A DNA stretch of 4,783 nucleotides from Escherichia coli (GCF_003334815.1 NZ_QOWO01000075.1), one strand, 5' to 3'; positions 1,311 through 4,783 are shown, counted from the stretch's first letter. The notes: a model not told the origin generated them from the letters alone. Made by a program: numbers and translations.

Positions 1311-1448
1311 TCAGCCCGCGCGAAAACCCCTGGCAGGCTGGCGCCTGCCGGAAGGGATGCGGGCCACGCTGGCGCGTCGCCCGTTACCCTTCCCGTTTGT
1401 GATGTGTCCGGAATGTTTTTTCCTGATGTTATGTTTCTGTGGTTACTG

Positions 1449-1477
1449 TTCTTCTTCTTCTTCTTCCTCTTCTTTCC
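1449..1477. repeat. Polypyrimidine simple-repeat tract containing (TTC)6 at 1449-1466
   Basis: Direct reading: ttcttcttcttcttcttc followed by ctcttctttcc; pyrimidine-only on the + strand for 29 nt. Confidence 0.9.
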
Positions 1478-1837
1478 GTTCCTCTCCTGTTTATGCCTTT
1501 TCCGGGCGTCCCCCTGGCGGGGCGGGCTGTCGTGAACGGAGCCAGCGGAGCTGTCTCCGCCCTGGCGGGCTTCCATCCCTGACGCAAAACCCCGGGTTTG
1601 CAGCGACCGGAACGGTCGCGCCACCCTTGTCGCGCCGTGGCCTGCGCTCCTGGCATCCCGGCAAAAAGACGCCGGGATGTAAGGCGCAACGCCGTTTCGC
1701 GCACGCGCTCTCCGTCGTTGCGGCGGGTCCCTGCTCATTGCCTGCCGGGTGCCACACACCCGTATGAGTCCCTGTCGCCGGGGGCTGATACAGCCACAAC
1801 CTGCCGCACTGACTGTCCAGGGTAAATGAACAGCCCA

Positions 1838-1873
1838 CAAAATTTTTTACCCAGAACCCGGTAAAAAATTTTG
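1838..1873. other. Perfect 14-bp AT-rich inverted repeat (CAAAATTTTTTACC / GGTAAAAAATTTTG) with 8-nt spacer
   Basis: Arms 1838-1851 and 1860-1873 are exact reverse complements. Flanked by a further imperfect pairing, 1813-1821 with 1882-1890 (8 of 9), suggesting a longer imperfect hairpin centred near 1855. Confidence 0.8.
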
Positions 1874-2252
1874 CGTTCTGCCCAGGACAGGTGCGTCAGG
1901 CCGTGGCAGTGATGCCCCTTGCGGCGAAGGTTCTCAAACGGGTGAAGTTCATACCACAGGGAATACAGCAGCAGGTTCCCGCGAAACGTCAAAACCGCGG
2001 CTCCCGAAACTCAACGGGTGATGTTCTTTAAAAATCAGGATTTATTTCAGGCTCCGGCAATACGCATTTATGTGTTCTGTCAGCATCCTGCTGACAGGTA
2101 ATGAGAACGCAGGAACAGAAGGAGGAATACACCGGAAAACGTCAGATGCAGATATGAAAAAAGCAGGTCAGGGACCTGCTTAATCCACGCCGAAGAGACT
2201 GTGCAACCAGTCTTTAAGGCACTGTTACCAACCTGTCATAAGGTATCCATTT

Positions 2253-2483
2253 ATGACTGTAAGCATTGTTTCACCTTCCGCAGCGGCTGTAAAGCCCCGT
2301 CGTCATACCCGTTTCAGACGCGAAGACATCCCCGCGCCGGAAATTGACCCCGTGCTGAAAGCCTTCGGGCGACACATTGCCCGGAGTTTTCGCCGGGGGC
2401 GTGGTGTACACATCCCCGCCATGAAAAACACGGCTTTCGGGCAGGTGCTCCGCACACTCGAACTGAAACGCGCTTTTAACTGA
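2253..2483 (+). CDS. Small arginine-rich hypothetical protein, 76 aa (possibly DUF905/UPF0401-like; unverified)
   Basis: ATG 2253 with weak SD (AAGG 2240-2243, 9-nt spacer); first ORF downstream of the structured element; co-oriented. Many R/K residues (KPRRHTRFRRED, RSFRRGRG). No motif recognised with certainty. Confidence 0.55.
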   Translation: MTVSIVSPSAAAVKPRRHTRFRREDIPAPEIDPVLKAFGRHIARSFRRGRGVHIPAMKNTAFGQVLRTLELKRAFN

Positions 2484-2491
2484 TGAGGTGA

Positions 2492-2511
2492 GCCGCCCCG
2501 CGAGGGGCGGC
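2492..2511 (+). other. Intercistronic GC-rich hairpin (8-bp stem GCCGCCCC/GGGGCGGC, GCGA tetraloop)
   Basis: Perfect inverted repeat 2492-2499 / 2504-2511 between the stop at 2481-2483 and the RBS AGGAG 2523-2527 of the next gene. Uses the same octamer pair as the 636-654 hairpin, in swapped arm order. Confidence 0.6.
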
Positions 2512-2534
2512 AACAGACAGAAGGAGAACATTTT

Positions 2535-3896
2535 ATGACATTATCAGCAATCACCATGACCGCCCCGGAAGCCGCCAGCCCGGTGCAGATGTACCGCGCG
2601 ACCTACTCACCGGATGATAACAAACTGCGCCTGTATGCCGCGTCACGTCTTGACCCGGAGACGTATAAAAAAGTGCATGATGCCGGTTTTCGCTGGGCAC
2701 CAAAACAGGCGCTGTTTGTCGCGCCAGCCTGGACACCGGGCCGGGAAGACGTGCTCCTCTCACTTGCCGGAGAGATTGAGGATGAAGACAGCACGCTCGC
2801 TGAACGTCAGGAAGCACGGGCGGAGCGGTTTACCGGATACAGCGGAAAGCGGGCCAGTGAATCCGCACAGGCACTTGATGAAGTGGAAAGACTGGCCGCG
2901 ATGATCCCGCCCGGTCAGCCCATTCTTGTGGGGCATCACAGCGAACGCCGCGCCCGTCGTGATGCGCAGCGTATTGAAAACGGCATGAAACGTGCCGTGA
3001 TGCTCTTTGAACGTGCGGAATACTGGGAAGAACGGGCGCGGTCGGCACTGCTTCACGCGAAGTATAAAGAACGCCCGGACGTTCGCTGGCGTCGTATCAA
3101 AAAAATCGAAGCGGATTTGCGCAAGGCTGAAAAGACCATCGCACAGTCGCAGAAATATCTGACGATGTGGCGGGCTGAATCGCTGGATCTGAATATGGCA
3201 AAACTCATCAGCAGTCATGACCATATCAGCGCCTGTTTCCCGCTGGATACGTATCCGCGCCCGGCAGAAAAAAGCCAGTATGAAGGGAGCCGGTCGTTAT
3301 GGTCGGCCCTGGATGATGACATCATCACCACGGAGCAGGCCCGCGAAATTGCGATCCGCTGTCATGAACGGCAGATTCAGCATCAGCAACGCTGGGTTAA
3401 CCACTATCAGAACCGCCTGATCTATGAGCGTGCCATGCTGGACGAAAGCGGCGGCGTGGTTACCCGGACACAGGATTTTGAGCCGGGCGGACAGGTTTTC
3501 AGCCGGGGCGAGTGGCTGACCATCATCCGCGTGAACAAAAGCAACGGGGCGGTGAGTTCAGTCACAACGCCGAATTACAGTTTTCTCGGGTACAGCGGCA
3601 CGATGAAAGTGACGCCCGATCGCATCACGGACTACAAAGCACCATCGGCAGAAGAGGCTGCCGTCGCCAGTCAGGCCGCGAAGCGTCCGCCGGTAGTCAA
3701 CTATCCGGGGGAAGGTTTCCGGGAAATGACAAAGGCACAGTGGGCCGCCCTGCCCCGGGACTGTAAGGCCGTGCGCAGTGTGGCAGAGACAGAAGACCAC
3801 GGGGCATACCGCTACCGCCGCACAATGGATAATAATTTCCGCCTGGTGAGTGTGTATATTACCGACATGAAAATCACGGAAATCCCACAGAAATAA
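2535..3896 (+). CDS. Protein of unknown function, 453 aa (possibly DUF3560-type leading-region protein; unverified)
   Basis: Long ORF with RBS AGGAG at 2523-2527 and 7-nt spacer to ATG 2535. Central highly charged, probably helical segment (ERQEARAERF ... RRARRDAQRIENGMKRAVMLFERAEYWEERARSALLHAKYKERPDVRWRRIKKIEADLRKAEKTIAQSQKYL). No catalytic motif recognised by eye. Confidence 0.9.
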   Translation: MTLSAITMTAPEAASPVQMYRATYSPDDNKLRLYAASRLDPETYKKVHDAGFRWAPKQALFVAPAWTPGREDVLLSLAGEIEDEDSTLAERQEARAERFTGYSGKRASESAQALDEVERLAAMIPPGQPILVGHHSERRARRDAQRIENGMKRAVMLFERAEYWEERARSALLHAKYKERPDVRWRRIKKIEADLRKAEKTIAQSQKYLTMWRAESLDLNMAKLISSHDHISACFPLDTYPRPAEKSQYEGSRSLWSALDDDIITTEQAREIAIRCHERQIQHQQRWVNHYQNRLIYERAMLDESGGVVTRTQDFEPGGQVFSRGEWLTIIRVNKSNGAVSSVTTPNYSFLGYSGTMKVTPDRITDYKAPSAEEAAVASQAAKRPPVVNYPGEGFREMTKAQWAALPRDCKAVRSVAETEDHGAYRYRRTMDNNFRLVSVYITDMKITEIPQK

Positions 3897-3901
3897 GGTA
3901 T

Positions 3902-3927
3902 ATCCCCCCGGGAAATCCCCGGGGGAT
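3902..3927 (+). other. Intercistronic hairpin containing two CCCGGG palindromes
   Basis: ATCCCCCCGGGAAATCCCCGGGGGAT: outer 7-bp stem 3902-3908 / 3921-3927, a C-C mismatch, inner 3-bp stem 3910-3912 / 3917-3919, loop AAAT. Lies between the stop at 3894-3896 and the RBS GGAG 3931-3934. Confidence 0.5.
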
Positions 3928-3942
3928 GACGGAGATAATGAC

Positions 3943-4506
3943 ATGCACAGTCAGTTAAGAGAACGTATCCGGCTGCTGCGCGCAAGGCTGGATAACGCCG
4001 CACCGGTTGCTGAAATCCGGGCTGAATCTCAGCTTTTTGTGACACCTGCCCCGGTCTGTGATCGCCTGGTGACGCTGGCGGAAATCAGCAATCGTGATCA
4101 CATTCTGGAACCCTCTGCCGGCACCGGGGCCATACTGCGGGCGATTCGGGATACCGCGCCGGAGGCCATGTGTGATGCGGTGGAGAGCAACAGCGGGCTG
4201 GTCCGGTATCTGCGGGAAAATTTTAACGGTGTCAGGGTACAGTGTGGCGACTTCATGGAATGGCAGCCGGTGCAGTATTACAGCCGGATTATCATGAATC
4301 CGCCGTTCAGCCACGGGCAGGATATCCGGCATATCCTGCGGGCCTTTTCCCTGCTGCGTCCGGGTGGCGTTCTGGTCGCCGTCTGTCTGAACGGGCCACG
4401 CCAGCAGGAGAAGCTGTTACCGTTTTCTGACATCCGCGAGGAGCTGCCGCGCGGCACGTTTGCTTATACCCATGTTCCGACGATGATTATTCGTCTGCGC
4501 GCCTGA
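3943..4506 (+). CDS. Orphan SAM-dependent methyltransferase, 187 aa (amino-methyltransferase fold; N6-adenine/N4-cytosine DNA MTase-like, no recognisable target-recognition domain)
   Basis: RBS GGAG 3931-3934 with 8-nt spacer. Motif I (AdoMet binding) ILEPSAGTGAIL near residue 55; motif IV NPPF near residue 119 (IIMNPPFSHGQD). Motif order I then IV and the small size indicate a minimal MTase core. No adjacent restriction endonuclease gene in the window. Confidence 0.85.
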   Translation: MHSQLRERIRLLRARLDNAAPVAEIRAESQLFVTPAPVCDRLVTLAEISNRDHILEPSAGTGAILRAIRDTAPEAMCDAVESNSGLVRYLRENFNGVRVQCGDFMEWQPVQYYSRIIMNPPFSHGQDIRHILRAFSLLRPGGVLVAVCLNGPRQQEKLLPFSDIREELPRGTFAYTHVPTMIIRLRA

Positions 4507-4577: not shown

Positions 4578-4609
4578 GAAAGGGGCCGCGCTGACGCGCC
4601 GCCCCTTTC
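4578..4609 (+). other. GC-rich hairpin downstream of the MTase (13-bp stem with one mismatch, 6-nt loop), contains GCCGCCCC
   Basis: GAAAGGGGCCGCG (4578-4590), loop CTGACG, CGCCGCCCCTTTC (4597-4609). Followed only by a short TTTC, so at best a weak terminator. Confidence 0.5.
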
Positions 4610-4654: not shown

Positions 4655-4783
4655 CATTTGTCTGTTACTGATGATGTTGTTGTTCCTGCTACTGCTACTG
4701 CTACTGTTCTTCTTTTTTCTGCTGCTCTGATTACTGTCTGTTTTGTTGTTCTCCTGCTTATGCCTTTTCCGGGCGTCCCCCTG
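4655..4783 (+). promoter_or_regulatory. Start of a second copy of the Frpo/ssi-like element (truncated by window end)
   Basis: 4751-4783 (ctcctgcttatgccttttccgggcgtccccctg) matches 1484-1516 at 32 of 33 positions. Upstream there are shared ttactgttcttctt and ctgatgtt blocks plus a different simple-repeat tract. Confidence 0.6.
4670..4750. repeat. Compound simple-repeat tract: (GAT)2(GTT)3 at 4670-4684, (CTGCTA)3 at 4686-4703, T-rich pyrimidine run
   Basis: Direct reading of the sequence; differs in unit and copy number from the tract at 1449-1477 in copy 1. Confidence 0.9.

Follow-up and report, generated by a model that had tools for sequence, protein, structure and literature searches.

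A probable third copy of the class 1 single-strand promoter in the leading region of IncF-type plasmids

What occupies the long gap between two short ORFs in a stretch of Escherichia coli DNA of 4783 bp (hereafter the window) was the question raised by this locus. The gap, which spans 1284–2252 (969 bp) between a 63-aa ORF and a 76-aa ORF, had been described in a sequence-only reading as holding a non-coding, structured element at 1415–2252 that recurs at the right end of the window. It was proposed to be a single-strand promoter of the type known as Frpo or ssi in conjugative plasmids. The region is indeed GC-rich and dense in inverted repeats, with a GC content of 0.705 at 1501–1700 and a fold of −233.8 kcal/mol for the whole gap (z −9.7).

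Long stop-free stretches were found in all six frames of the gap, and hypothetical proteins are annotated here in some database records. A coding function, whether as a protein of 187 aa on the − strand, one of 160 aa on the + strand or a small Leu/Phe-rich peptide in a pyrimidine-rich tract, is nevertheless extremely improbable. The stop-free frames shift between orthologous copies that are 97% identical, substitutions relative to F Frpo1 are spread evenly over the codon positions (23/28/24) without a third-position excess, and copies of the module that contains the element differ through 1- and 2-nt indels. The long ORFs were ruled out as genes by the frame shifts and the lack of third-position bias, and the small hydrophobic peptide by stop codons in its frame in the copies designated B and C below. 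The gap region is non-coding, as the sequence-only reading had held.

Thousands of IncF-type plasmids match the entire window at 96–97% identity, and the majority are predicted to be conjugative. In pRM10466-2 the gene order is klcA/ardB (antirestriction), a DUF1380 gene, the 63-aa ORF, the gap studied here, the 76-aa ORF, a DUF3560 gene and a gene for a class I SAM methyltransferase. A second gap is followed by ssb, a DUF905 gene, a parB-like gene, psiB, psiA and hok/sok, and a third by ygeA/B-like genes, a DUF932 gene and an SLT transglycosylase gene, after which come traM, traJ, traY and further genes. F ssiE, which adjoins oriT, maps immediately ahead of traM in this plasmid. In transfer of the F type the 5′ end at nic enters the recipient first and the leading region next. 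Judged by this gene order, the window is leading-region DNA with oriT to its right, and the − strand is therefore the transferred strand and the template for all of the + strand genes. This polarity had been deduced earlier from the uniform direction of the genes, and the presence of oriT/ssiE, traM, traJ and the tra operon to the right in near-identical plasmids bears it out. Class 1 elements lie in the leading region and have their downstream genes templated by the transferred strand, and this arrangement was established here from the context in pRM10466-2 and F.

A further element was observed at the left edge of the window, where a class 2 single-strand promoter that precedes klcA/ardB is represented at 1–165 by its right half, the 5′ arm when the transferred strand is considered. 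It is cut by the window start, is complete in pRM10466-2 at 13629–13866, and shares 88% identity over 172 nt with the insect-metagenome Frpo'4. The class also goes under the names ssp2, 'Frpo3' and Samuel's Frpo'4.

The recurrence at the right end of the window is real. A repeat search found 71% identity over 85 nt between 1432–1516 and 4699–4783, and a pattern check gave 32/33 matches, with a T/C change as the sole difference, for a 33-nt core at 1484–1516 and 4751–4783. The number of chance matches of such quality expected in 4.8 kb is about 1e-11, which is negligible. When module boundaries were determined from an alignment of five modules, the repeated unit was found to extend from about 1484 to 2036 (approximately 550 bp), and the second copy was found to be cut by the window end, leaving only its start (4655–4783, comprising a pyrimidine tract at 4655–4750 and a flank at 4751–4783). 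Three copies are present in pRM10466-2, namely copy A (the one studied here), copy B upstream of ssb, equivalent to Frpo2, and copy C upstream of ygeA, equivalent to Frpo1, while F has the equivalents of B and C only. Complete copy B in pRM10466-2 has a flank that starts near 18440 and hairpin homology at 18637–18985, and is followed there by ssb, the DUF905 gene, the parB-like gene, psiB and psiA, which agrees with the earlier claim that co-oriented genes follow each copy.

Two aspects of the sequence-only reading required revision. The first 100 nt of the proposed element do recur, but the promoter is elsewhere; the recurring part consists of the pyrimidine tract and the first 33 nt of the flank, and the hairpin lies at 1694–2010. 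The proposed extent of 1415–2252 does include a Frpo-type hairpin, but 2037–2252 lies outside the Frpo element and is a copy-specific leader with an antisense RNA gene.

Directly 3′ of the stop codon of the 63-aa ORF, GC-rich local hairpins (1284–1414) lie outside the repeated module and are copy-specific, with 97% identity to the stretch upstream of F Frpo2 and merely 33–51% to other copies. They are followed by the variable pyrimidine-rich tract (1415–1483), which is (CTT)n on the + strand, 83% C+T, and on the transferred strand is purine-rich and incapable of self-pairing. Triplet slippage was apparent in both pyrimidine tracts of the window, their length varying in 3-nt units among near-identical plasmids and among copies with no conservation of a reading frame, and they are always found immediately to the left of the conserved flank. 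The flank (1484–1693, 210 nt), which starts with the 33-nt core, is on the transferred strand located 3′ of the hairpin and hence upstream of the promoter. Its mean pairwise identity among five copies is 92.8%, against 86–90% for the hairpin arms, its structure is moderate (z −2.8), and partial conservation extends to a Salmonella IncFII plasmid and to the tails of the ColIb ssi elements. It is better conserved than the hairpin and may contribute to the function of the module. It falls outside the 328/351-nt definition of ssiD.

The hairpin (1694–2010, − strand) is imperfect and 317 nt long, with the 3′ arm at 1694–1855, the 5′ arm at 1856–2010 (read from 2010 to 1856) and the loop at 1852–1859 when viewed in the duplex. 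Samuel et al. 2024 (Supplementary Table 2) supplied the reference Frpo and ssi sequences. Over 340 nt, F ssiD/Frpo was 78% identical to the − strand of the window from 2012 to 1680 (E 8e-70), and ColIb-P9 ssi2 and ssi3 aligned to the central part of the hairpin (79% over 96 nt for ssi3). In 1768–1937, 167 of 170 positions were identical to the F Frpo2 fragment used in the functional Frpo-acrIIA4 construct. Folding of the − strand of 1676–2036 produced the single long imperfect hairpin that the proposal had called for, with approximately 117–120 bp and an energy of −98.1 kcal/mol (z −8.1).

The pairing is conserved in the family. Eight members were compared (three IncF paralogues, F Frpo1 and Frpo2, and Serratia and insect-metagenome variants), and in their consensus hairpin of 85 pairs 94.2% of cells were paired, versus 37–48% in registers slid by 1–3 columns. 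Changes on both sides were found in 12 pairs, and the covariation score of 0.171, versus 0.108 in shuffles and equalled in none of 500, is supportive rather than decisive because the set of eight is small and partly made up of close relatives. In all six copies examined the transferred strand was more stable than its complement by 7–15 kcal/mol (9 kcal/mol for the studied copy) on account of G:T pairs, an asymmetry that selection on the transferred strand would be expected to produce. More distant relatives were sought in two ways. The best 5000 PLSDB matches in a distant-mode BLAST search were all close relatives with none divergent, and the pattern TGTCCNGGGN{55,85}CCCTGGAC, which proved too loose, returned only chance matches (Nocardia, Streptomyces) in 298 Gb of contigs. 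Homology, fold and context agree with the earlier suggestion of a Frpo/ssi-like single-strand promoter. Together with the covariation and strand bias observed for copy A, they lead us to infer that the gap element is very probably a third paralogue of the class 1 ssDNA promoter (Frpo, ssi, ssp1) and active as a single-strand promoter.

The hairpin can be read as a promoter in two ways that differ in the arm assigned as the non-template strand. In the reading that we prefer this is the 3′ arm, with a likely −35 hexamer TGGACA at 1814–1819, a likely −10 hexamer TGTATC at 1787–1792 and a predicted start near 1921 (all but the start on the − strand). The position of TGGACA was confirmed and its role as the −35 is an assignment, as is that of TGTATC, which is a poor match to the consensus with a G at −11. 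The start (1917–1925, + strand), which would be templated by the 5′ arm, is predicted from the −10 position and the duplex register. TGTATC is at a conserved internal loop (1786–1789 opposite 1911–1913) that is unpaired in eight of the eight aligned members. The two hexamers are separated by 21 nt, a 3-nt bulge (1810–1812) included, and by 18 nt on the template arm. Beyond TGGACA on the 3′ arm is an unpaired 8-nt bulge, TTCATTTA (1823–1830, duplex view), bulges of this kind (G-T/C-n-CAT-T/C-T) being conserved in the F, ColIb, Salmonella and insect variants. The A+T-rich apical stem and loop (1836–1875, − strand, with 1836–1851 paired to 1860–1875) are likely to form an UP-like element upstream of the −35; the A+T-rich apical stem is missing from the insect-metagenome variants.

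In the other reading the non-template strand is the 5′ arm, with TTGAGA (1937–1932) separated by 17 nt from CATCAC (1914–1909) and transcription proceeding up through the loop. It was attractive initially, as TTGAGA is invariant in the eight members and its partner is variable. It was demoted because the functional Frpo-acrIIA4 fragment, which starts at the equivalent of 1768 in the window, does not include the partner of TTGAGA, and because ColIb has no equivalent. That fragment retains TGGACA, the internal loop and approximately 20 bp further. The 3′-arm reading is also favoured by the presence of TGGAC(A/T) or TAGACA at a conserved distance of 17–18 nt ahead of the internal loop in F Frpo1, ColIb ssi2/3 and the Serratia and insect copies, by the neighbouring class 2 promoter, whose hexamers occupy the 3′ arm in the same orientation, and by the A+T-rich UP element that Samuel et al. 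place upstream of the −35. Both readings give a + sense RNA directed toward the 76-aa ORF. A −10 inside the 8-nt bulge was also considered and was rejected as there is no −35 at a workable distance. We observed a 1-nt discrepancy between the deposited F ssiD sequence (GenBank accession number D90178), which has GGGGCATACTGCC, and the complete F sequence (NC_002483, near position 15880), which has GGGGCATCACTGCC; it is in the internal-loop region and alters the −10-likeness of that arm.

With the 3′ arm as the non-template strand, a route from DNA entry to expression can be proposed. During conjugation the − strand would enter the recipient 5′ end first, oriT being to the right of the window, and 1694–2010 would snap back into a hairpin of approximately 120 bp while the strand is still single-stranded. 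The upper stem would thereby rebuild a duplex sigma-70 promoter made up of the A+T-rich apical stem, the TGGACA −35 and a pre-melted internal loop with the TGTATC −10. Host RNA polymerase would then start near 1921 and read the 5′ arm followed by the remaining transferred strand, producing an mRNA of + sense that would cover all three genes (the 76-aa HU-like ORF and those for the DUF3560 protein and methyltransferase), and the same transcript could also prime synthesis of the complementary strand. Once the strand had been copied the hairpin would be gone and the promoter off. A promoter scan found no + strand sigma-70 promoter in 1250–2320, leaving the operon without an evident double-strand promoter. 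Transcription by sigma-70 polymerase from single-stranded but not double-stranded DNA, together with early zygotic induction, has been reported in the literature for F Frpo1 and Frpo2 and for pESBL ssi1–3. Deletion of F Frpo2 abolishes early ssb and yfjA expression (Couturier et al. 2023), and Frpo-acrIIA4 on the transferred strand of the leading region rescued transfer approximately 225-fold (Samuel et al.).

The operon served by copy A (2253–4506, + strand), delineated from the ORFs and the annotation of pRM10466-2, consists of three genes. The 76-aa HU-like ORF (2253–2483, +) has a weak match to Pfam PF14908 (E 1.9e-4) and is followed by the gene for the DUF3560 protein (2535–3896, +) and the gene for the class I SAM methyltransferase of 187 aa (3943–4506, +), which has NCBIfam matches and an NPPF motif at residues 119–122. 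Neither the other two products of the operon nor klcA had a match in the NCBIfam search. The methyltransferase shows weak similarity to Erm/KsgA N6-adenine methyltransferases and is probably an orphan leading-region amino-methyltransferase. Short hairpins made almost purely of G and C were seen in every intergenic gap of the + strand operons (636–654, 2492–2511, 3904–3925 and 4578–4609), for example GGGGCGGC-GAT-GCCGCCCC. They have no T tail and could stabilise mRNA or form in the single strand.

Between the module and the first gene is a leader that is unique to copy A in the five-module alignment (2037–2252, + strand, 216 nt, with a hairpin at 2076–2097), whereas in copies B and C the gene is within approximately 30 nt of the module. 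The leader is 94% conserved in two other plasmids. At 2116–2124 it retains AGAAGGAGG, which aligns with the ribosome-binding site directly before ssb in copy B; no start codon follows at a usable distance, and this may be a relic of an older promoter–gene junction.

The right end of the leader overlaps an antisense RNA gene on the − strand (2153–2293). Promoter and terminator scans identified its own sigma-70 promoter (TTTACA-17-AACAAT, 2293–2265) and an intrinsic terminator (2181–2161), opposite the start codon of the 76-aa ORF, and the RNA (2258–2153) has a three-hairpin fold (z −4.1) and spans the ribosome-binding site and ATG of that ORF. The sense leader forms a mirror hairpin (GTCATAA...TTATGAC) with the start codon in its stem. 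The RNA resembles AS-pc01 (Rfam RF02875), which is antisense to pHK01_035 and likewise overlaps the start of the orthologous 76-aa ORF. Model positions 1–99 are fully matched, and three hairpins and an own promoter and terminator are shared, but the middle hairpin has diverged and the score of 68.7 bits (E 5e-11) is under the gathering score of 79, so the window RNA is a diverged homologue of AS-pc01 and not a member at the curated threshold. For comparison with an AS-pc01 orthologue pFAM22321 was used in place of pHK01 (GenBank accession number HM355591); its orthologous site scored 89.7 bits, above the gathering score, and differs in the middle hairpin by a compensatory change from G:C to A:T. 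The leader, the start-codon hairpin and the antisense RNA may limit the output of copy A. As the template for the antisense RNA is the + strand, the RNA can be produced only once the complementary strand exists. It is thus conceivable, if doubtful, that copy A is a two-layer sensor of strandedness, in which the hairpin would fire only when the plasmid is single-stranded and the antisense RNA would then pair with the ribosome-binding site and ATG of the first gene, shutting off leftover mRNA. In that case the HU-like ORF, and perhaps also the DUF3560 and methyltransferase genes, would be expressed in a sharp pulse. No paper linking AS-pc01 to single-strand promoters was found in the literature.

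Among known elements, F Frpo2 (ssp1b, upstream of ssb) is the most informative for comparison. It is the same module on the same strand with the same placing relative to oriT, and beyond the nearly identical core it shares 91% of the flank and 98–99% of the upper hairpin arms, but only 78% of the lower 5′ arm. It serves ssb, whereas copy A serves the 76-aa ORF, DUF3560 and methyltransferase genes, and it has no counterpart of the 216-nt leader with antisense RNA. None of the three genes served by copy A has a homologue in the F leading region. When informative sites in the F Frpo2 module (9839–10643 in F, compared with 1284–2036 in the window) were examined, they were of the copy A type to about 1919 and matched copy B from about 1940 onward, and some patches of conversion lay in the interval. 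The two copies are repeated in the same direction at a distance of 3267 bp, and a mosaic module that lacks the intervening block is the product expected from recombination between them. F Frpo2 thus looks like a recombinant of copy A and the ssb copy B. Repeat-mediated gain and loss has been proposed for IncI plasmids, and Couturier et al. raised such recombination as a risk.

F Frpo1/ssiD, found upstream of ygeA and ygeB, has the same hairpin architecture and internal loop as copy A; the apical stem and arms differ at approximately 30% of positions, with compensatory changes, and the 3-nt spacer bulge is missing. The class 1 elements of IncI1 plasmids (ssi1–3 of ColIb-P9/pESBL) share the apical A+T stem, the 8-nt bulge, the CCCTGGAC motif and the internal loop, with approximately 79% identity over the central 80–96 nt, and like the IncF elements they occur as three dispersed copies, each ahead of an operon. 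In the lower stem and flank they have little sequence relationship to copy A, and the genes downstream differ (ardA, psiB and others). The promoters of class 2 (ssp2, 'Frpo3') and class 3 (ssp3) (Wen 2025; Fraikin 2026 preprint) work on the same principle in the same leading region but have no sequence homology to 1694–2010. The class 2 hexamers are TTGCAA and TaCgAT (with two mispairs), located on the 3′ arm as in the reading preferred here. In the literature, roadblock activity has been shown for ssp2 and is unreported for class 1.

Other roles for copy A have to be weighed against promoter activity. Copy A could be a silent duplicate, a substrate for recombination or a scar of cassette shuffling between Frpo repeats; in favour of this are the mosaic structure of F Frpo2 and the gain and loss proposed for IncI plasmids, and the lower 5′ arm of copy A (1915–2010) has diverged to merely 77–79% identity to the other copies. 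Yet this arm still pairs and resembles the Serratia/insect lineage rather than random decay, the hairpin (−94.5 kcal/mol) is on a par with those of F Frpo1 (−90.1 kcal/mol) and Frpo2 (−84.6 kcal/mol), the promoter core is that of a functional fragment at all but three positions, and copy A has been kept with its own leader in at least 3198 of the best 5000 matching PLSDB plasmid records. We therefore regard silence of copy A as very improbable. Slightly more improbable still is an ordinary double-stranded regulatory or terminator region, acting through protein-binding sites or through terminators or stabilisers of the klcA operon at the RNA level. The GC-rich hairpins at 1284–1414 lie directly after a stop codon, as such a region would require, and G/C-only hairpins recur in every intergenic gap, but the scan found no terminator-like site on the + strand, and the 317-nt hairpin, the stability bias towards the transferred strand and the homology to a demonstrated single-strand promoter would all be left unexplained.

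A stronger contender, though still on the unlikely side, is that priming (ssi) is the main role, with the hairpin supplying an RNA primer for the complementary strand and gene expression being secondary. Frpo was originally identified as ssiD, the transcripts of which prime DNA synthesis in vitro, and a recent preprint describing priming and roadblock behaviour reports that in vivo the early conversion downstream of ssp1a and ssp1b is sensitive to rifampicin (Fraikin 2026). Priming is compatible with promoter function, however, and deletion of Frpo1 or Frpo2 abolishes expression of the downstream genes (Couturier et al. 2023); in the window a three-gene operon follows and no other + strand promoter was detected.

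F Frpo (ssiD) was reportedly characterised in vitro by Masai and Arai in 1997, and the ColIb ssi elements are said to have been the subject of genetic and in vitro studies between 1999 and 2004. A BLAST survey in 2024 found 13 089 homologues in 6006 elements (Samuel et al.), and a scheme of three classes of ssDNA promoters has been set out using RNA-seq and 5′ RACE (Wen 2025). The class is thus already known, with characterisation going back to 1997 and in vivo validation in 2023–2025, and copy A, for which no paper naming it as a third IncF copy was found, is an obvious homologue with a validated core that leaves the current view of the mechanism unchanged. What it adds concerns the IncF-type plasmids themselves. 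The direct repeats of approximately 550 bp would account for the gain and loss of blocks of leading-region genes. Most IncF-type plasmids appear to have a third class 1 promoter before a putative orphan amino-methyltransferase operon, which has been lost in F, so that studies of F alone miss one early operon. Single-strand promoters let conjugative plasmids express anti-defence and establishment genes before the host reacts, and are for this reason relevant to the spread of antibiotic resistance.
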